The translations under genes and the position numbers were made by a program. The notes beneath the pieces are model-generated. The model was not told the DNA's origin. It saw only the letters and a list, made by a program, of their open reading frames with translations, and did no database searches. DNA of 64,000 nt, taken from positions 75,969 to 139,968 of the forward strand of contig JAIPHX010000003.1 of the NCBI GenBank assembly GCA_021734995.1, given 5' to 3'. Origin of the DNA: Minisyncoccota bacterium. GTDB taxonomy: Bacteria; Patescibacteriota; Minisyncoccia; Phycocordibacterales; UBA9973. Below, piece by piece: positions 2,129 through 11,738 of the stretch (its first letter is position 1; each line of letters opens with the position of its first letter).

Positions 2129-2448
2129 TCGGGAGTAGCTCAGCGGTAGAGCGGTCGCCTGTGGAAATGTATTACGCAGCTTTCTATCTAAAGATAGATC
2201 GAAAACGAGGTGAATTCGGGGAAGCCCAATCTTATAACAAGAGGGTAATCCCGAGCCAAGCCCTTTAATAGGGAAGGTGTAGAGACTATCCTTTATGGAG
2301 TAGCTTCATAATTTATTTATGTTGCGAAGCGCCTCGCTTCTAAGTCTTGAGAGTAATCAAAAGATATGAAGATGATATAGTCCATACTTCTAGTAATAGA
2401 AGATAAAATGTAAGCGATTGGTCGTAGGTTCGATCCCTACCTCCCGAG
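2129..2448 (+). tRNA. tRNA-Asn(GUU) interrupted by a group I intron (exons 2129..2162 and 2411..2448)
   Basis: Exon 1 is tcgggag-ta-gctcagcggtagagc-g-gtcgc-cugu. Exon 2 is uaa-gcgat-tggtc-gtaggttcgatccctac-ctcccga-g. Acceptor stems are exactly complementary. The spliced anticodon loop is CUGUUAA, identical to the E. coli tRNA-Asn loop. Confidence 0.8.
2163..2410 (+). ncRNA. group I intron (IC3-like) in tRNA anticodon loop
   Basis: The intron follows an exon U that pairs in P1 (ctgt/gcag, U.G at the splice site) and ends with omega-G. Conserved core elements are present: gaattcggggaagcccaa (P/P3-P4), aatcccgagccaagcc (Q), gaaggtgtagagactatcc (R), gaagatgatatagtcc (S). These resemble the Azoarcus/Anabaena tRNA introns. 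Confidence 0.8.
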
Positions 2449-3993
2449 CAATGTTTTGTATTTAGTGCTATTTTTACTTTTTACCTTACTGGTATTAGGT
2501 TTTTTGAGTTCGAAGATTTGTTGAGCGTCAATTCGCTCTTGAATCCTCTTTGAAATCTTTTTTACCGAACTTTTCAATACTGTATTGGCTTTTTTGTCTT
2601 TTAATATCAAGTTCGAAAAAATATGAGATAAAAGCAGTCGGCGCTCCTCCGGACTTCTCTTTTCGTAAATTTCTCTGGCCCGGCGTGCTAGATCAAGGAT
2701 GTTGATGTAAAGCTCAAAGTATTTCGTCTCTTCATTTTTGAGCTTGGTTATTTTATTCTGAATTTCTGCTTGCTCGGCATTTATTTCTTTCTGTTTGCTT
2801 TCCCACTTTTCTGGAGTTATCTTTTCTGACAGTCGGTCGTTGTAGAGTATATCCAACTGCCTCTGTAATGAGTTATAGCGTTGATCCAGAGCTTTAAGAG
2901 TGTTTTCCTTGTATTCAGCTTCTAGCTTGTGATCAGCTTTAATTCTGTCTCGTATAATGTCCGCTTCTTTTTCAGTTATATTTTCAAAGAAACTAAATAC
3001 TCCCATTAAGGAAGTATCCAAATCCGTTTCCTTTGTCATCCCTTTTTGGGTGCATGGTCGGTTGTGCTTGCAGGAGTAGTAAATAGTTCCTTTCTGTATC
3101 TCGCCACTGATTGAGCCACCACACTCTCCGCACTCTATCATTTTACTGAATTGGAATGTATGTCTTTTGTAATGTGGAGATTTTCCGCGTGTTAGCGTAA
3201 ATTGAACCTTTTCAAATAATTCTTTGGATACTAGAGGGGCGTGAAGGCCATTCGTGTAGGTAATGTCATTCCACCTTATACTGCCCATATAGAATGGGTC
3301 GCGTAATATGTCCTCCAACCTGCTCTTTGAGAGCTTGCTACCATTCCGGGTCCTTAATCCATCTTCATACAGCTTTTCTCGCAGAGATATCAATGAATAG
3401 TTCCCGGTTGAGTAATACTCAAACGCTTTTCTCATAAACGGAGCTTTTGTCTCGTCAAACACATGGGTCTTGTGGCCCTTCTCGCCAACTGTTTTGTATC
3501 CAAGTGGTGGTTTGGCTGGAAGCCAACCCTGCGCAATTTTTTCCTTCTGACCTTTTTTCACTTCTTCAGAAAGATTTGAGATGTATTTTTTAGCAAGAAC
3601 TATTTCAATATCCCAACGAAATTTTTCATCTGATTTAGCATTTCTATGAATTACAAGATTTTGCTTCACAAAATGAATTTGTCTTTTTTCATCTGCTTCA
3701 ATCCAGTCATTAGCAACAACTGCTTCTTTTAGATTTCTAGTAAGACGATCAACTTTTTCACAAAGAAGAATTGGTATATTCTTCTTACTAATAAACTCAA
3801 TCATTTCTCCGAATATTTTTCTTTGCTTTGATCCACTAGCTGATTCAGCTATTGAAAAAACTTTTACAACATCAAACCCCTTACGAGTAGCATATTCTAC
3901 AAGTAATTTTTCTTGTGCCGGAAGAGAATAACCAGTTTCTTCTTGTTCTCTCGATGATACTCTGCAATAGATTACACATTTATTTTTTTCCAT
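2437..3993 (-). CDS. large serine recombinase (resolvase/invertase N-domain, recombinase domain, zinc ribbon)
   Basis: N-terminal VIYCRVSSREQ catalytic serine motif and VDRLTRN. Central recombinase domain. CGECGG...YYSC zinc ribbon. Coiled-coil C-terminus. The stop codon overlaps the 3' end of tRNA-Asn. Confidence 0.85.
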   Translation of the reverse strand: MEKNKCVIYCRVSSREQEETGYSLPAQEKLLVEYATRKGFDVVKVFSIAESASGSKQRKIFGEMIEFISKKNIPILLCEKVDRLTRNLKEAVVANDWIEADEKRQIHFVKQNLVIHRNAKSDEKFRWDIEIVLAKKYISNLSEEVKKGQKEKIAQGWLPAKPPLGYKTVGEKGHKTHVFDETKAPFMRKAFEYYSTGNYSLISLREKLYEDGLRTRNGSKLSKSRLEDILRDPFYMGSIRWNDITYTNGLHAPLVSKELFEKVQFTLTRGKSPHYKRHTFQFSKMIECGECGGSISGEIQKGTIYYSCKHNRPCTQKGMTKETDLDTSLMGVFSFFENITEKEADIIRDRIKADHKLEAEYKENTLKALDQRYNSLQRQLDILYNDRLSEKITPEKWESKQKEINAEQAEIQNKITKLKNEETKYFELYINILDLARRAREIYEKRSPEERRLLLSHIFSNLILKDKKANTVLKSSVKKISKRIQERIDAQQIFELKKPNTSKVKSKNSTKYKTLLGR

Positions 3994-4131
3994 GTTTTTA
4001 TATTATATCTTAAAACTAATAATTTCTTAAATTGAGAGAATGTTCTCTCTTGGTTTTATCTATGATGTATTCTCTGTATATAGTATTTATGCAAGAACCA
4101 GCAATCAGTTTGCTGAAATCAACAAACTAGT

Positions 4132-4509
4132 TTACCCATATAAACTTCTACCAGAAGCTTTTTCTAATAAAGGGAAAAGTTTTTCTTTATCAATGTGAAA
4201 ATGTCTTTTTCTTGGCATTCCTCTTGATTCTACTAATAAAATTCCTAATTCTTTCCATATTTTTATAGCCCTGTCTTGCTCACTCCTAGTCATGCCAGTT
4301 TCTTTTTTTATTTCATCTATAGTCTTATAAATCCAATCTCGATCATATCCCTTATGCCACCAAAATAATAATTGCGAAAGAAATAGTCCAGCAAGTGAAC
4401 TATTGGAAATACGAGCTAAAATGGGATTAAACGCTATTGGTTTTTCTCCTAATTTTTCAATAATTAAAGAATTAAAATTCTTATTTAGTTTTTTGTTCAG
4501 CTCATTCAT
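4132..4509 (-). CDS. putative phage-type DNA-binding/replication-associated protein
   Basis: Small basic protein with a winged-helix-like segment (GMTRSEQDRAIKIWKELGIL). It sits next to the recombinase. Family assignment is uncertain. Confidence 0.35.
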   Translation of the reverse strand: MNELNKKLNKNFNSLIIEKLGEKPIAFNPILARISNSSLAGLFLSQLLFWWHKGYDRDWIYKTIDEIKKETGMTRSEQDRAIKIWKELGILLVESRGMPRKRHFHIDKEKLFPLLEKASGRSLYG

Positions 4510-4517
4510 AAATTTTC

Positions 4518-4739
4518 TTAAATGTTAGAACCTAAAACTGGCCCTCTAGGAGCTGATACTAGGGGGTCAGTTTTAAGTGCCGACATTTCTTTTTGTTTAT
4601 CTTCATAATCAAATTTTGCTAGCAAATCAAAAAAGGAAGAGATGTCATCCAACTCAAAAATATCAAACTCTTCATTTGTTTGATTATTTAAGTTCATTGT
4701 TGAAATACCAAAGACATATTTTTTCAACTGTCTTTGCAA
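4518..4739 (-). CDS. hypothetical acidic small protein
   Basis: ORF only. It overlaps the 3' end of the RHH-like ORF 4684..4851 in another frame. The start may be the internal Met (MNLNNQ). Confidence 0.3.
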   Translation of the reverse strand: MQRQLKKYVFGISTMNLNNQTNEEFDIFELDDISSFFDLLAKFDYEDKQKEMSALKTDPLVSAPRGPVLGSNI

Positions 4740-4851
4740 TAGTGCGATTATCTTCTACGGCCTTTTTCAAAAGCTTTTGGTGAATATAAGAATCAACACG
4801 AATCTGTTTCGTTATTCTTTTTCTTTTTGCACGATAAATTATCTTTACCAT
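4684..4851 (-). CDS. ribbon-helix-helix (CopG/Arc-like) DNA-binding protein, 55 aa
   Basis: Not in the ORF track (below size cutoff). Reads MVKIIYRAKRKRITKQIRVDSYIHQKLLKKAVEDNRTIAKTVEKI. This fits the RHH pattern of a basic beta-strand (KQIRVD) followed by two helices. Confidence 0.5.
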   Translation of the reverse strand: MVKIIYRAKRKRITKQIRVDSYIHQKLLKKAVEDNRTIAKTVEKICLWYFNNELK

Positions 4852-4983
4852 GCTTTAAGGATAGCTTTTTGAAAGTCATGTATGTAGATACGATAGAAAA
4901 ATTAGTAAATTAAAAATACCTAACGATTTATTGGATATTCTAGTTAGTTTGAAAAGCTCTCCACCGTATTTTTAGCGTATATC

Positions 4984-5607
4984 TTATTTTACTTTATATA
5001 CATCAGTATTTATCTCATATCCACCGTGTTTATTTATTATTAGAGGTTCTTTCTTTAACAGTTCAAGTTTATTATAAGTTCTTTCATTTACTTCTTTTAC
5101 AGTTCTAGCCCAGTTGTTTTTACCGTCTCCCAGCTCTGATCTTTTTAATGGTTTAGGACTATTTTTTAATTTATCTATTAAATCAATAGGATATTTTTCA
5201 AATTTAAAATCACATATAAAGACTTTACCATCTTTGTTTCTTTTTAGAGTATTGTCTTCAAAATATAAAATTATCAAACTATCTTCTTCTAATTCATTTT
5301 TAAGAGTTTTTATTTTTTCTCTTGTAGACCATGTATCTAATCTCCTTAAAAAAATACTGTTTTTAGACAATTCATCATCAAAACCAACTCTATTTTTTAT
5401 AACTAAATTAGTTTTTTCAATTACTTCAGATAATTTTTTTATATCTGCAACACTCACACCATACGCCCCCATGGAAGAGAAAGGTATTTCTATATGTTCC
5501 GAAGGACTAGTTTCATTCTGATATTTTTCAATCATATCTATTGATTCTAATAATTTATCACAGTCAGTTTTTGTTAGTTTATTTTTATTAACAATTTTTG
5601 GTTCCAT
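4984..5607 (-). CDS. hypothetical protein (element cargo)
   Basis: 207-aa ORF with no recognisable motif. Lies inside the putative integrated element. Confidence 0.4.
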   Translation of the reverse strand: MEPKIVNKNKLTKTDCDKLLESIDMIEKYQNETSPSEHIEIPFSSMGAYGVSVADIKKLSEVIEKTNLVIKNRVGFDDELSKNSIFLRRLDTWSTREKIKTLKNELEEDSLIILYFEDNTLKRNKDGKVFICDFKFEKYPIDLIDKLKNSPKPLKRSELGDGKNNWARTVKEVNERTYNKLELLKKEPLIINKHGGYEINTDVYKVK

Positions 5608-5995
5608 AATAAATATAATCTCATTTTTTTACGCTTTTGTCGACAATTTATTCTCCTATAACACCCCTTAAAATGCGACCATTTGCTCCACATATTTTCT
5701 TACGATTTCCTATGTGAAGAAAATACTTATTTTTTATTAAAAAATCATAATATGATATCAAACAAATAACTCGATAAATAAAGAATTTTTTGATCACACA
5801 ATCCCTCTTTATGCGACCTTTTGCGACCATATCAGACCCCACGTTTTCCCCCTATTTCCACCCATCATTATCAGACATTTTCAGATATCATGTTTCCGAC
5901 CATTTCCGCCGATATACTTTATTGTATTTGTCGACAAAAAGAGCTATTATAAAAATACAACGCCTAAACCAGAAATGGCATGGCTACATAAGAAT

Positions 5996-6041
5996 CCCAC
6001 GCAAATAGTAATGGCCTCATAGTCATCACCATTTGCGTGGG
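5996..6041. promoter_or_regulatory. 11-bp perfect inverted repeat cccacgcaaat / atttgcgtggg (24-bp spacer)
   Basis: Seen directly. A third copy of cccacgcaaa sits at 6137..6146, abutting the ATG of the 6147 gene. A second hairpin gtatcctc-gaaa-gaggatac is at 6064..6083. Confidence 0.5.
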
Positions 6042-6146
6042 TCCATATTCGAAAGAGTATGGGGTATCCTCGAAAGAGGATACCAGATGGTCTGTGAGGC
6101 CTTTACTGTTTTCACAACCATATTATAAATTAAAAACCCACGCAAA

Positions 6147-7100
6147 ATGAAAAAAATACAAATAGTTTTTTTGTTTATTTTTTGCCTTTTTTCTTTTAAT
6201 GCAGTTCATGCAGAAACTTTAATTATCAAATCGGTAGAAAAAAGAATTGAAGATATTGAAAAAATGAGAGAAAAATTAGATAAAGACAATGAGACAAATT
6301 ACAAACAACTCCAAGCCGAACTTAAAAGTTTAAGTGCTCAAATAGATAGTAATATAAAAAGTAATTTTACTTGTGTTCAGCCGGTTGCTATGTGTGATGA
6401 ATCTACTTACCAAAGAATAAGAGGAATCGCTATATCAAATGGTCTTACCCCAGACGCCATCGAACTTGCTCAATGCAGAGCCAAGATCGATGAGTATAAT
6501 CAAAAACTTCAAGAATATAATATATGTTTTCTAAATTGGCAAAATAAAAAGATTGAGGATTCAGCACAAATAGAATATAAAAATCAATTACAAATTTATG
6601 AATTAAAAGCAGAACTTTGGTGTATTGATAAAGAGGGATATTATTCTTCTTACAACAAAAACACTAAAGAATGTGAATGTGTAGAGGGTTCAACTTTTAT
6701 CAATGGAAAATGTAAAAGCAATCTAGAGAATCTTCTTTTTTGTGCCAAAAACTTTGGCTCATTATCTTACAGTGATGAAAAAGGAGCATGTGCATGTGAA
6801 GATGGAAGTCAGTTTGATTGGAATAATAATGGTCTTTGCACTAAAAAAGAAAGATCAGTAACTGAAAACAAGTATATCCCTATTAAAGAGCGTCAAGATA
6901 TCAAAACAGCAATTATCCCATCTTCAGAAGTAAAAGCCCCGGAAATCGCAAAAACAAGGGAGGAATTACCTTCTAAAAGTGAAGTAATCCCAGAGACACC
7001 CTTACCTGTGTCTATTTCTAATACACCAGACAACAAAATACCTCAAACTACCTTTTGGAAGAAATTAAAAATTAGCATATCCAAACTTAAGTTTTGGTAG
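6147..7100 (+). CDS. secreted Cys-rich protein with N-terminal coiled coil and Pro/Thr-rich tail
   Basis: Signal peptide MKKIQIVFLFIFCLFSFNAVHA, more than 14 Cys in the central region, PETPLPVSISNTPDN tail. Confidence 0.5.
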   Translation: MKKIQIVFLFIFCLFSFNAVHAETLIIKSVEKRIEDIEKMREKLDKDNETNYKQLQAELKSLSAQIDSNIKSNFTCVQPVAMCDESTYQRIRGIAISNGLTPDAIELAQCRAKIDEYNQKLQEYNICFLNWQNKKIEDSAQIEYKNQLQIYELKAELWCIDKEGYYSSYNKNTKECECVEGSTFINGKCKSNLENLLFCAKNFGSLSYSDEKGACACEDGSQFDWNNNGLCTKKERSVTENKYIPIKERQDIKTAIIPSSEVKAPEIAKTREELPSKSEVIPETPLPVSISNTPDNKIPQTTFWKKLKISISKLKFW

Positions 7101-7107
7101 AATTTTT

Positions 7108-7371
7108 ATGCAAATAAATTTATTATTTTGGGTATTTATATTGATTACTTTCACTGGAACATCTCTATATTATTTAGGTAAGACAAAAAGAGGTAATCAA
7201 AGTGAAGTTATTAAATTTTCTGGTGGAATTATTACATTTGGCATTTTGATTACTTCTTTCTTTTTCTTGGGGTGGAAAATTGCTATTTTGTTAATCATTA
7301 TAGAATTTACAATTATTAGTTTTGTTTCTGCTTTTTTGATTGAATCTATTATGAAAAAGCGTATTAAATAA
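7108..7371 (+). CDS. small membrane protein
   Basis: Three predicted TM segments. No homology recognised. Confidence 0.4.
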   Translation: MQINLLFWVFILITFTGTSLYYLGKTKRGNQSEVIKFSGGIITFGILITSFFFLGWKIAILLIIIEFTIISFVSAFLIESIMKKRIK

Positions 7372-7389
7372 TTTATTTATAAAAGTTTT

Positions 7390-7818
7390 ATGGATAAAGA
7401 TATAGAAAAATTAAAATTATTAACAATAAACATGCTTCAAGAAACACAAAATAATGACATGGAACACAAACAACAATTAAAAAATTTAGTAATAAGTATT
7501 TTATTAACCCTTTTGCCGATTCTGATATTTATGCTAATTCCCAGTATGGGAAATAAATACTTTGATATGTTTTCCGGTAGAATAATGTATATTAGCTCTG
7601 ATCATTTCTTTTCTTTTTCACCAATCTTTGTTTTGAATTTACTGTATTTTCTACCACCAATAATCTGGATCTTTTCAATATGGTTTTGTCTTAAAATTAG
7701 AAGAGGAATACAAGACCGAAAATCATTTTTTAACTATTTCAATTTAATTTTAATTGTTTTAGGTAGTGTTGAACTCTTATATTCTTTATGGTTTTTATAT
7801 AGGTATTATTTACTGTAA
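7390..7818 (+). CDS. membrane protein
   Basis: Multiple hydrophobic helices. No homology recognised. Confidence 0.4.
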   Translation: MDKDIEKLKLLTINMLQETQNNDMEHKQQLKNLVISILLTLLPILIFMLIPSMGNKYFDMFSGRIMYISSDHFFSFSPIFVLNLLYFLPPIIWIFSIWFCLKIRRGIQDRKSFFNYFNLILIVLGSVELLYSLWFLYRYYLL

Positions 7819-7902
7819 ATGTGCTAGAATAAACTTATATCAGAAAATATTAGGTATCTATTTTGAGATTGGATATCTTTTTGGTTTTATTTTGAAAATG
7901 AG

Positions 7903-9468
7903 ATGAAAATAAAGAAAATACAACTTATAAATTTTAAGAGATTTGATGATTTGACAATTGATTTAGGGAATATGCCTAAAAAGATTATTGCTTTAGTCGG
8001 CCCCAATGGATCAGGAAAAAGTTCGGTTTTTGATGCATTTGAAGAAAAACTTAAAAACTATAAGGGGACACATCAACAAGAACACGCTTCTTTTTTTGCT
8101 AAACTTTATTTTTCGATTTTTCCTGAAAAGAAAAGTGAATCTTATAATAAAGAAAATTCTATAAAAATAGAAAATGACAATAATAATGAATTTAATAAAA
8201 AAAGTTTTTACATAAGAACAGCCTATCGATTTACTTCAAGATTACAGGTAGATAATTTGAGAAAATTACCTGATGTGATTGATGATGTTAATAGGCCTTA
8301 TAGCTCAAATGCTATGGATAATAGATTGCAGGAAAATTATGAACGGATGTTAAGTAAAGCCTTTCAAGAATTTTTTAATGACACTTCTGGCAAGACGGGT
8401 TTAGTAACAAGAAAGGAACTTATTGATAAAATCAATAATATTTTAGGTAATATTTTAGATATTAAAATATCAAACATTGGTGATGTAACTCAAGGAAAAG
8501 GGCAATTGTTCTTTGAAAAAGAAAGTTCAAAAGATTTTCCTTTTGAAAATCTATCTTCTGGTGAAAAAGAGGTGGTAGATATTATTATAGATTTAATTAT
8601 AAAAACCCCAGAATATGATAACACTGTTTATGCTATAGATGAGCCTGAATTACATCTTAATACTAGCATTCAAAGAAAATTATTGATTGAAATTGAAAAA
8701 CTTATTCCTGATAATTGTCAGATATGGGTAGCGACACACAGTGTGGGATTTTTAAGATCCTTACAAGAAGAACTAAAAGAAAAATCCCAAATAATTGATT
8801 TTTCAGAAAAAGATTGTTTTAATGGAACTCAAACTGCTTACCCAATCAAAACAACTAGACAAAACTGGCAAAGAATTTTTCAAACTGCCCTAGAAGACCT
8901 CACTGGATTAGTAGCTCCAGAAGTAATAATTTATTGTGAGGGTAGACCGGACCCAACAAATTCAGGAGGAGAACAAGGGTTAGACGCAAGTATTTATAAC
9001 TTAATTTTTGGAGAAACTAACCATAATACATTATTTGTCTCGAGTGGAGGAAATGATGTAATTGCTAATTCTACCCTAGCATTAAAAATAATAACTAAAG
9101 CATTTACTAAAGTAAAATTATTTCTACTTAAGGATCGTGACGATCTAACTGAGCAGGAAAGAATCGATTTTCTTGGTGCTTCAAGTAGTAATAAGATGTT
9201 GGAAAGAAGAGAAATAGAAAATTATGTTTTTGACTATGAGATACTAAATGCCTACGCAGTTTCAATAAGTAATAATATAAATAAAACGGATTATGATAAA
9301 ATTGTAACTGATATAGAAAATCAAGATCTTAAATTAGGAACTACTATGGTGGATTTACAAAAATTAGTAAATGGTAAAGGTTCTTTGGAGAGTTTCAAAA
9401 TAGAGTTGTCAAAATTCATAATTCCTACCACAGAAGTATATAAAAGACTTTACACAGTAATTTTTTAA
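7903..9468 (+). CDS. OLD/PARIS-like ABC ATPase fused to Toprim/DUF4435-like domain
   Basis: N-terminal IKKIQLINFKRF. Walker A GPNGSGKSS, signature-like LSSGEKE, Walker B VYAIDEPELHLN (the DEPExHLHP hallmark of AAA_21/OLD), H-loop ATHS. The C-terminus carries a Toprim-like Glu (IIYCEG), DxD (LKDRDDL) and a terminal EIENYV. Confidence 0.65.
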   Translation: MKIKKIQLINFKRFDDLTIDLGNMPKKIIALVGPNGSGKSSVFDAFEEKLKNYKGTHQQEHASFFAKLYFSIFPEKKSESYNKENSIKIENDNNNEFNKKSFYIRTAYRFTSRLQVDNLRKLPDVIDDVNRPYSSNAMDNRLQENYERMLSKAFQEFFNDTSGKTGLVTRKELIDKINNILGNILDIKISNIGDVTQGKGQLFFEKESSKDFPFENLSSGEKEVVDIIIDLIIKTPEYDNTVYAIDEPELHLNTSIQRKLLIEIEKLIPDNCQIWVATHSVGFLRSLQEELKEKSQIIDFSEKDCFNGTQTAYPIKTTRQNWQRIFQTALEDLTGLVAPEVIIYCEGRPDPTNSGGEQGLDASIYNLIFGETNHNTLFVSSGGNDVIANSTLALKIITKAFTKVKLFLLKDRDDLTEQERIDFLGASSSNKMLERREIENYVFDYEILNAYAVSISNNINKTDYDKIVTDIENQDLKLGTTMVDLQKLVNGKGSLESFKIELSKFIIPTTEVYKRLYTVIF

Positions 9469-9470
9469 TT

Positions 9471-10499
9471 ATGGCATATCCACTTATAATTTTTGGAGCA
9501 GGAGCATCTCATGATTTTTCACCCTTAGGGAAAATGGCCCCTCTTACTAATGATCTCGCAGAAGATCAATTTATTCATTCTGGATTTCTTGAAAAATACA
9601 AAGGGGCAGGAAATTTATTAGTAGAAATAATCAATCAAGTAAAAAGTCGCAAAAGAAATTTTGAAGAAGTTTTGACTGAAATACAGAATGATTCCATAAA
9701 ATCTGAGGCTATGCGAAGACGATTCGTAGATTTTGAATTTTATTTAAGAGATTTGTTTTCTTATATTTCAAAACCACATGACTTAAATCGTAAAATACAT
9801 CAAGCTAATAATTATCATGCAATAATAAATCGCATTGATACTTATACAAACGGGAAAGCGTTAATAGCAACATTTAATTATGATTCTTTATTTGAAAATA
9901 GTCTTAGCTCCTTAAAACCAAAAAACATGAGAGATTATATTTCAAGTGATATTAAAATTATTAAATTGCATGGTTCTCATGATTGGGGTTATATTAGAAG
10001 AACATCAGAAATGGAAAGAAAGCATCTTGGTATAAAAGATGGCTATGAACTTTCCATAAAAGAACCTGACATTCTTAAGGAAATTAAAGAGGGTAAATAT
10101 GACCCATATCATATTCAAGAAATAGAAGAAAATGCTGAAAAAAATGATTTTAACTCATTTCCTGCTATAGCTATTCCTTTGATAGGGAAAGATAAATATG
10201 TATGTCCGACTCAACATATTAAAGTTTTTGAACAACATTTACCACAGATAGATAGAGTTTTAATTGTTGGTTGGAGAGCAGAAGATCCATTACTACTTGA
10301 AACACTGAAAAATAATTTACCAAAAGAAGGAGGATATAAAGTTCTTGTTGTTTCTTGGACACTTGAAGGGGCTCAAAAAATAGCCAAGAAAGTTAAAGAA
10401 GGTCTTGGTATTCTTAATGATTTTTATGTTCAAGCCAGAGGAAATGGTTTTTCAACATTTATGGCGGATGAAGCTTCAAAGATTTTTTTCTCTCAATAA
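9471..10499 (+). CDS. SIR2-like (SIR2_2/DHS-like NAD-binding) domain protein
   Basis: LIIFGAGASHDF at the N-terminus. ATFNYDSLFE and IIKLHGSHDW match the TTNYD...KLHGS hallmarks of defence-associated SIR2_2 domains. Starts 3 nt after the ATPase gene. Confidence 0.6.
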   Translation: MAYPLIIFGAGASHDFSPLGKMAPLTNDLAEDQFIHSGFLEKYKGAGNLLVEIINQVKSRKRNFEEVLTEIQNDSIKSEAMRRRFVDFEFYLRDLFSYISKPHDLNRKIHQANNYHAIINRIDTYTNGKALIATFNYDSLFENSLSSLKPKNMRDYISSDIKIIKLHGSHDWGYIRRTSEMERKHLGIKDGYELSIKEPDILKEIKEGKYDPYHIQEIEENAEKNDFNSFPAIAIPLIGKDKYVCPTQHIKVFEQHLPQIDRVLIVGWRAEDPLLLETLKNNLPKEGGYKVLVVSWTLEGAQKIAKKVKEGLGILNDFYVQARGNGFSTFMADEASKIFFSQ

Positions 10500-10504
10500 T
10501 TATT

Positions 10505-10942
10505 ATGAAAACAATTATACAAATTTTAATAATTTCATTTTTAATTATTCCTAATTTTTCATTTGCTCATCCGGGCCGAACAGATTCTTCTGGTTGTCAT
10601 ACTTGTCGGACAAATTGTTCTAATTGGGGATTATCTACGGGTGAGTATCATTGTCATAATGCTAAAGCATTGCCACAACCAGAAGAGCCAATTAAAAGCA
10701 CTTATGGAGAAAACGGGACCGGATACACAACACTAGCACCGGAGTATAAGATTCCAGCAACACCTAAAAAAGTAATTCCAAAAGTTGTTGAACAAAAACC
10801 TGTTTCTACTACGCCCATAAACAAAATTGAAACATCACAAAATACAAAAATAGAAACTCCCGCTCCTTATCCAGTTCCAATACAAACCCCAGAACCTGTT
10901 AAGAAAAAAAGTTTCTGGTCAAAGATATTTTGGTTTTGGTAA
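10505..10942 (+). CDS. secreted protein with YHYH-like Cys/His motif
   Basis: Signal peptide. HPGRTDSSGCHTCRTNC...GEYHCHN resembles the HPGxxDxxGGH...YHYH domain. Pro-rich C-terminus. Confidence 0.4.
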   Translation: MKTIIQILIISFLIIPNFSFAHPGRTDSSGCHTCRTNCSNWGLSTGEYHCHNAKALPQPEEPIKSTYGENGTGYTTLAPEYKIPATPKKVIPKVVEQKPVSTTPINKIETSQNTKIETPAPYPVPIQTPEPVKKKSFWSKIFWFW

Positions 10943-10951
10943 ATAATTTTT

Positions 10952-11581
10952 ATGACAGCTAAAGATCATGTAAAAGAATGGTTAGATAGTATCTCTAAAC
11001 GAGGTGGCTATATAGAAAAACAAGAAATTATTTTTCTAATGGTTCAAGCACGACACTTAATCGAAAACCACCCCAATATCTCTAAATATAGAACAATTGA
11101 ATTTTATAGTAATTGGGTAGTTCATACTCAACTGGATAGACCATCAGAAGTGAGTTTATCTATATTTCGAGACATCACAAAAATACTTTCAGCTAATTGG
11201 AATCCTACTGACCCAGAAATGGGAAATCAAATATCAAAAGTAATTGGCCTTTCCACTTTAAGAACTGAACTTGTCTCTTTATTTCAAGAGAATAATCTTA
11301 ATGTTGAACTTTTTAGTATTTATGAAAATTGGAAAAATATCGCAGTATTTTTGATTTACTTTTTGCAAAATAAACCATTGGTATTTCCTAAAACTACAAA
11401 AAATAAGTTTAAGCTCCTTATTGAAGAAATAATGAATCTTAAGAAACCGGCTGACTTTTGGATAAAAAACTTATCTATAATCGGGATAGATAATCGTCCC
11501 CATTGGTGCTTTGAATTAGGGGGTGAAAAAAATACTACGAAAATTATTGGAGAACTATTTATTGAAAAAGACCCTGCTTAA
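10952..11581 (+). CDS. hypothetical protein
   Basis: 209-aa ORF with no motif. It is the last gene before the first cassette-boundary repeat. Confidence 0.4.
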   Translation: MTAKDHVKEWLDSISKRGGYIEKQEIIFLMVQARHLIENHPNISKYRTIEFYSNWVVHTQLDRPSEVSLSIFRDITKILSANWNPTDPEMGNQISKVIGLSTLRTELVSLFQENNLNVELFSIYENWKNIAVFLIYFLQNKPLVFPKTTKNKFKLLIEEIMNLKKPADFWIKNLSIIGIDNRPHWCFELGGEKNTTKIIGELFIEKDPA

Positions 11582-11649
11582 TTAAACAAAAGAGATTTAA
11601 TTTCTGCTAGTGCAATACTAGGGAAAGGATATTCATTTAGCCAATCTAT

Positions 11650-11738
11650 CGTTCGAAAGTCATCCACCAAAGCGAGCCATCAAAAAACAGCTCAAATACT
11701 GGGCTGTTTTTTTGTTACCCCAATAGGGTTCAGAACTC
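11650..11738 (+). repeat. cassette-boundary repeat copy R0 (degenerate, contains terminator hairpin)
   Basis: cgttcgaaagtcatccaccaaagcgagcca ... agggttcagaactc. The embedded hairpin aacagc-tcaaatactgg-gctgtt plus T7 (11686..11713) is followed by tttgttataat and the ATG at 11751. Confidence 0.6.

Follow-up and report, generated by a model that had tools for sequence, protein, structure and literature searches.

In the window, a stretch of 64,000 nt from a Patescibacteria/CPR genome, the gene for tRNA-Asn(GUU) is almost certainly split between U35 and U36 of its anticodon by a 248-nt group I ribozyme that has no open reading frame. The two exon halves occupied 2129–2162 and 2411–2448 of the forward strand, and the intron lay between them at 2163–2410. 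Sequence and comparative analysis supported the predicted fold, borders and spliced product of this intron.

Gene borders and intron fold

The 5′ exon (2129–2162, + strand), found by ARAGORN in intron mode and read directly from the sequence, comprised the 5′ strand of the acceptor stem, the D arm, the 5′ strand of the anticodon stem and the loop nucleotides C32, U33, G34 and U35. It ended in ...GGTCGC-CUGU, and after 248 nt the tRNA was resumed with UAA-GCGAT and its remaining part. This 3′ exon (2411–2448, + strand), supported by ARAGORN and by comparison of the ligated exons with uninterrupted genes, contained U36, A37 and A38, the 3′ strand of the anticodon stem, the variable loop, the T arm, the 3′ strand of the acceptor stem and G73. 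The acceptor stem TCGGGAG/CTCCCGA was composed of seven Watson-Crick pairs out of seven, the first of which was U1-A72; the discriminator was G2448 (G73), and CCA was not encoded. U1-A72, G73 and the GUU anticodon are identity features of bacterial tRNA-Asn.

ARAGORN reported the gene in intron mode as tRNA-Asn(gtt) i(35,248), and in default mode it found only a tRNA-Ala in the whole window and missed tRNA-Asn. Each junction was moved from −3 to +3, and among the 49 resulting combinations the junction given above was the single one that passed, combining a 7-nt anticodon loop with U at position −1 and G at the omega position (G2410). The predicted spliced product of the window was a 72-nt tRNA-Asn, folded by ARAGORN into a cloverleaf with GUU in a 7-nt loop. 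The original prediction, made by reading the letters, had placed two tRNA halves with complementary acceptor stems 248 nt apart, the intron between anticodon nucleotides 35 and 36 in the loop CUGUUAA, the U of the 5′ exon opposite a G in P1 (ctgt/gcag) and a G at the intron end; all of these agreed with the analysis, the borders to the base. The P, Q, R and S core blocks that it had named were also recovered, with one copy each in the window (2213–2227, 2247–2262, 2273–2291 and 2368–2383). A scan of 1900–2700 for sigma-70 promoters and intrinsic terminators gave nothing beyond shuffled expectation near the tRNA.

The covariance-model search that had been proposed as a check matched Rfam Intron_gpI (RF00028) at 85.9 bits (gathering score 50, E 1.8e-20), and 13 of the 19 relatives scanned also passed this model. 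The Rfam alignment of the intron spanned 2094–2403. These coordinates are not the intron borders, because P1 was misplaced on an upstream AT-rich hairpin and the 5′ half of the tRNA was taken as an insertion. The z-score of the minimum free energy of the intron was −3.6.

A helix model comprising P1–P9, the P3/P7 pseudoknot and two additional hairpins between P7 and P3′ was written on the window sequence, and each proposed pair was a standard pair there. Relatives were fetched by a pattern in which the conserved P7′ element was followed, after a gap, by G, UAA and a T-loop, and the window was aligned with 36 short relatives by MAFFT (37 sequences). In this alignment, 84.4% of the structure cells were paired, compared with 34–51% when the 3′ partners were slid by 1–3 columns. 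Changes on both sides were found in 46 of the 70 pairs, and none of 500 shuffles equalled the observed values. Clear compensatory changes occurred in P2, P3, P4, P6a and P8; P3, P4, P6 and P8 were 92–100% paired with compensatory changes, and P7 was invariant.

All helices are on the + strand. P1 (2159–2179) was formed by the exon CUGU and G2163 (2159–2163) with C2175 and GCAG 2176–2179 (2175–2179) around a loop of 11 nt, and it was paired in 37/37 sequences. The 5′ splice site is marked by its U2162-G2176 wobble. Covariation was seen in the next pair, G2163-C2175, which lies across this site (GC 17, AU 9, GU 3, CG 2); the four exon pairs are dictated by the anticodon loop. The P2 hairpin UCUAUC/GAUAGA with the loop UAAA (2183–2198) had changed on both sides in 6/6 pairs, with 94.6% of cells paired. 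P3 (2206–2212 with 2330–2336) is long-range and forms a pseudoknot with P7; 97.7% of its cells were paired, compensatory changes were found in 4/7 pairs, and its variants among the relatives included CGAGGUG/CGCCUCG and UCAGGUG/CGCCUGA.

The P4-P6 domain spanned 2216–2278. P4 (2216–2221/2249–2254) covaried, occurring as CGGGG/CCCGA in 18 sequences versus GCUGG/CAGCA in another 18. P5 (2224–2227/2243–2246) was extended by P5a (2230–2233/2239–2242), which is length-variable and was poorly aligned by MAFFT, and P6 (2255–2257/2276–2278, 100% paired) by P6a (2261–2264/2270–2273, 92.6% paired). P7 (2282–2383) consisted of G2282 and 2284–2288 paired with 2378–2383, with A2283 bulged. Its six pairs were invariant in the 37 sequences; this is the guanosine-binding helix, and its invariance is consistent with a catalytic core and carries no covariation information. 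P8 (2337–2340/2368–2371) was 99.3% paired, with compensatory changes in 3/4 pairs, and the inner P8a (2344–2348/2361–2365; P8 and P8a together 2337–2371) was length-variable. The P9 hairpin CUUCUA/UAGAAG with a GUAA tetraloop (2387–2402) was present as a single hairpin in 37/37 sequences (mean z −3.1), and its loop was GNRA in most of them.

The segments between P7 and P3′ were anchored and folded sequence by sequence, because MAFFT misaligned the length-variable hairpins. Exactly two hairpins were obtained in 37/37 (mean z −3.0), which are in the window P7.1 (2289–2291/2297–2299; overall 2289–2299) and P7.2 (2303–2304 and 2307–2311 with 2317–2321 and 2324–2325; overall 2303–2325). The omega G was invariant throughout the alignment, by construction, since the search pattern demanded a G there. 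In the window, UAA could pair with 2172–2174 as a P10 helix; this pairing forms in 3/37 sequences only and was rejected as a class feature because it is unconserved among the relatives. As counterpoints, covariation lends no support to P7 or to four of the five P1 pairs, which do not vary, the window L2 is UAAA versus a GNRA loop in most relatives, P7.1 has only 3 bp, and P7.2 is AT-rich.

These peripheral features bear on another explanation, namely that the intron is a decaying, non-splicing remnant in a redundant tRNA-Asn gene and that the cell relies on a second, intact gene elsewhere. The non-GNRA L2, the short P7.1 and the absence of the homing endonuclease that relatives carry would suit such a remnant, and the 64 kb analysed are a part of the genome, so that a second gene could lie in the rest. 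We consider this very unlikely. The core helices of the window are all fully paired, the window keeps all 61 positions that do not vary among the 37 aligned sequences (window included), and uninterrupted genes that look functional match its exons exactly. Degeneration of the core pairings, which the original prediction had named, in combination with an intact tRNA-Asn elsewhere, as speaking against its reading, was absent. The preferred reading remains a group I ribozyme in a tRNA-Asn gene.

Uninterrupted twins, relatives and splicing

A metagenome scan with the spliced anticodon arm and the T arm as the query matched at least 120 contigs. Among the matches listed, 15 metagenome contigs carried an uninterrupted tRNA-Asn that was identical to the predicted spliced product in 72/72 positions. 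Therefore, the splice junction is supported without any intron model. This shows that intron-bearing and intron-less alleles of one tRNA sequence exist in nature. The locus is one more correctly mapped example of its class, and the intron-less twins confirm the junction independently, from sequence only.

The same intron site was found in at least 120 species genomes, which belonged mostly to Patescibacteria, with some from Omnitrophota, Planctomycetes and others; nine viral contigs were also matched (pattern search; among the matches listed). In at least 98 of 129 loci, the 5′ exon ended in a CUGU that came right after a strand complementary to the 3′ strand of the anticodon stem. About half of the relatives were labelled by ARAGORN as Thr(tgt)@33/34, which is a two-base slip.

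The label raises the possibility that the host is tRNA-Thr(UGU) with an intron at 33/34, both junctions being moved by 2 nt so that the junction would read CCU/UGUAAGCG. ARAGORN and tFind often annotate such genes in this way, and a −2 move of both junctions in the window still folds as a tRNA. However, the last intron nucleotide would then be A2408 and no longer a G, and P1 would lose its conserved U-G wobble; U1-A72 and G73 are features of tRNA-Asn and not of tRNA-Thr, and it is the Asn product that equals uninterrupted tRNA-Asn genes throughout. Spliced products of Patescibacteria introns were sequenced by Nakagawa et al. (mSystems 2026; PMC13011429; preprint July 2025) and had the junction 35/36, and the same Thr(UGU)@33/34 mis-annotation was reported there. 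The tRNA-Thr reading is effectively refuted and hardly credible, and the host is taken below as tRNA-Asn(GUU).

A minority of the relatives (L009, L016, L030, L039, L046, L093, L095 and L105) belonged to a second intron lineage at the same 35/36 site. They were without P7.1/P7.2 and had a different core (…GGGAUAACGGUGAA…GCGCCGUAGAGACUAGAUACC…), so the site is used by two or more intron lineages. Separately, the IMG/VR viral contigs L121, L127 and L129 had an intron-split tRNA with a GUU loop and a G1-C72 acceptor stem (GGCTCG…CGGGCC), and L126 resembled a tRNA-Lys(UUU) with its split likewise at 35/36 (CUUU/…G/UAA). Two Logan contigs, SRR12088350_23000 and SRR12088350_20000 (L131 and L133), were 100% identical to the window and had ends exactly at 2162, where the 5′ exon finishes, and at 2410, the intron's terminal G. 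Branching of the assembly graph at the two splice sites points to a second allele in sample SRR12088350. Since the contig starts at 2410 and not 2411, this allele is more readily explained as another intron variant with the same terminal G than as one lacking the intron.

The splicing chemistry would be the standard two-step group I pathway, judging from the intron family and from the published in vitro splicing of the same class. In that pathway, the transcribed intron would fold into the P1–P9 core, with the P7.1 and P7.2 hairpins at its periphery. The guide sequence GCAG (2176–2179) within the intron would pair with the exon CUGU and present the U2162-G2176 wobble. An exogenous guanosine held in P7 would attack after U2162; G2410 would then replace this guanosine, and the freed 3′-OH of U2162 would attack after G2410. 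Ligation of the exons is predicted to yield a tRNA of 72 nt whose anticodon loop is CUGUUAA. Precise self-splicing in vitro was demonstrated for another tRNA-Asn intron from Patescibacteria, and an omega G-to-C change abolished it (PMC13011429).

Among the matches listed, about one third of the relatives were introns of 430–720 nt. Most of these long relatives had an ORF of 100–135 aa that started 20–60 nt into the intron, in the P1 loop. Relatives of 510–630 nt encoded HNH proteins of 100–135 aa with Cys and His motifs; against Pfam PF01844 (HNH) the ORFs of long relatives scored 19–24 bits with a cut-off of 21.4, and one of four passed. The closest relative of the window intron among the matches listed was L033 (79% identity over the ribozyme), and it has an HNH-type ORF. 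No homing endonuclease ORF was found in the 248 nt of the window intron, which is the ORF-less form because its P1 loop measures 11 nt. Since the HNH homing endonuclease of the relatives is absent from the window copy, this intron is probably no longer mobile by itself.

The serine-recombinase element downstream

A large serine recombinase of 518 aa (Pfam Resolvase, Recombinase and Zn_ribbon_recom) was encoded at 2437–3993 on the − strand, and its unconserved C-terminal tail ran into the 3′ end of the tRNA. The DNA homology between the window and locus L230 covered 2497–4007 and then 11587–11679, identity ended at ~11683, and the flanks differed; the spacers between tRNA and element were unrelated before 2497. 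This homology-bounded block with different flanks brackets an element of ~9.2 kb with the recombinase at one end. The putative integrated element (2497–11683, unstranded, borders approximate) also contained a replication-initiator-like ORF (4132–4509, − strand; PHROG replication-initiation match), a LOOT RNA (5961–6084, + strand; Rfam RF03000, 67.6 bits), an AAA_21/AAA_15 ATPase (7903–9468, + strand; Pfam) and a conserved right-end block (11587–11683; homology to L230).

Among the matches listed, a recombinase homologue located downstream of tRNA-Asn and convergent on it was found in 23 of 79 intron-bearing loci with at least 1.5 kb of downstream sequence, and a homologue was present beside 24 of 70 intron-less metagenome loci, where 22 of the 24 were convergent. 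The association is thus with the tRNA and not with the intron. Overall, recombinase elements lay 20–300 nt downstream of tRNA-Asn in ~30% of the loci with enough flank. The original prediction had regarded the tRNA as the target of an integrated element; the element is real and its association with tRNA-Asn was borne out, but it lies outside the tRNA, with homology starting 48 nt downstream, and the link is independent of the intron. That the intron arrived together with the element as its cargo has a negligible probability and is already contradicted: the recombinase ORF overlaps the tRNA 3′ end and recombinase genes adjoin many intron-bearing tRNA-Asn genes, but they are equally frequent beside intron-less ones, the sister element in L230 (recombinase 80% identical) adjoins an intron-less tRNA, and the homology of the two elements begins only at 2497.

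In five of nine junctions (window, L094, L096, L024 and L111), the recombinase frame was open through the spacer and stopped inside the T arm of the tRNA. No direct repeat of the tRNA 3′ end of at least 12 nt, as expected from an att duplication, was found, an outcome of little weight, since a very short crossover core is enough for serine recombinases. GTTCGAA was present at both element ends, with the left copy also inside the recombinase reading frame. A GGTTCGAA motif downstream of the tRNA was conserved in nine recombinase-bearing loci and recurred at the right end; in its left-side copy the variation fell on third-codon positions, as would fit an F-E-P/L motif encoded in the tail of the recombinase. 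In L230, the spacer between tRNA and element had two GG(A/T)TTTTTG…GGTTCGAA copies, at ~185–195 and ~290 (tRNA on +), and this double junction motif could be the remnant of an earlier insertion.

No empty attB or empty site was found in the 249 loci. A search through relatives of the upstream bPH_2 gene also gave no empty site, the nearest relatives being 51–54% identical and non-syntenic; one of them had an unrelated structured region in place of the tRNA. In the distant relative L134 (4840–5270; also L135–L137), a region of ~400 nt with a tandem duplication followed the bPH_2 gene. It had complementary ends (GCTCCGTG … CACGGAGC) and a T-loop-like GTTCGACCC, and ARAGORN made no tRNA call there. 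A tRNA-Ala(UGC) gene was located at 1176–1251, a few hundred nt upstream of tRNA-Asn, and likewise in many intron-less loci (e.g., L159 4303–4382), which suggests a conserved tRNA-Ala/tRNA-Asn neighbourhood.

LOOT (RF03000) is an orphan RNA with no function described in the literature examined. It was also found in four other recombinase elements beside tRNA-Asn (L009 1–120, L199 2821–2945, L230 3476–3597 and L253 67–191), and the ORFs adjoining it were unconserved among elements. A role of LOOT as the leader of the 317-aa ORF at 6147–7100 was rejected because this ORF has no homologue beside the other LOOT copies. We tentatively propose, with somewhat less than even confidence, a joint reading in which the tRNA-Asn locus is a meeting point of a homing intron and serine-recombinase elements, and LOOT is a functional RNA borne by the elements. 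One layer may be a polymorphic homing intron, with intron-less, ORF-less and HNH-bearing alleles on near-identical exons; the other may consist of recombinase elements whose insertion point lies tens of nt downstream of the tRNA; five of the elements found here carry LOOT. If true, LOOT would be an RNA of the elements instead of a host sRNA, serving for example in defence, replication control or recombination directionality. Of the findings at this locus, only the LOOT RNA and the recurrent recombinase element may exceed published knowledge, and modestly so.

Relation to known introns

The intron is already known: earlier publications describe the arrangement and its splicing in vitro, and the window holds an ordinary example. 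The number of intron-split bacterial tRNA types was raised from 4 to 21 by Williams (2020; bioRxiv 10.1101/2020.01.27.920355), who catalogued the tRNA-Asn 35/36 intron class as 'Asn.4Ug'. In 95 complete Patescibacteria genomes, Nakagawa et al. counted 15 tRNA-Asn(GUU) genes interrupted at 35/36 by group I introns; nearly all such introns were classed as IA, HNH endonucleases were found in the long ones, and the tRNA-Asn intron was the commonest tRNA intron in Patescibacteria (PMC13011429). The expectation of the original prediction that an Asn host would be unusual is overturned by this frequency and by the species genomes counted here. Because the source MAG is outside the complete-genome set of that study, the locus is a further instance of the described class. 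The window intron shared with the published Patescibacteria tRNA-Asn introns the host tRNA, the site, the phylum, the U-1 and omega-G borders and the P7.1/P7.2 periphery, and at 248 nt it is within their range of 184–894 nt (PMC13011429). No structural difference from the class was seen; the window copy has a UAAA L2 and an AT-rich P7.2. Standard tRNA finders miss or mis-name the intron-split tRNA-Asn, thus such genomes seem to lack tRNA-Asn and score less complete, and this apparent loss and the lower completeness scores have already been pointed out in published work.

The introns of Azoarcus tRNA-Ile(CAU) and cyanobacterial tRNA-Leu(UAA), which belong to IC3, are likewise located in the anticodon loop of a bacterial tRNA, small and usually ORF-less. 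Their insertion sites differ, being 36/37 in Azoarcus tRNA-Ile and 34/35 in cyanobacterial tRNA-Leu, compared with 35/36 in the window. The close resemblance to these introns that had been predicted held in part. It applies to the core blocks, as the J3/4-P4, P4′-P6 and J6/7-P7 sequences (AAUUCGG.GAA, CCGAGCCAAGC and GAAGGUGUAGAGACUA) are presumably very similar to those of Azoarcus and cyanobacterial IC3 introns. It does not extend to the segment between P7 and P3′, where the window and its 36 relatives have both P7.1 and P7.2 and the Azoarcus IC3 intron has neither. Such a P7.1/P7.2 pair characterizes IA introns and is not known from IC3. Together with the published classification as IA, the two hairpins point to an IA-type layout of the window intron.

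Phage IA introns reportedly carry a P7.1-P7.2 insertion between P7 and P3′. Those of T4 td and Twort orf142-I2 share this insertion with the window, and some phage IA introns contain HNH-type endonucleases. The two phage introns reside in protein-coding genes, are larger and have extended P9 regions, whereas the window intron interrupts the anticodon loop of a tRNA and has just one GNRA-capped hairpin as P9.
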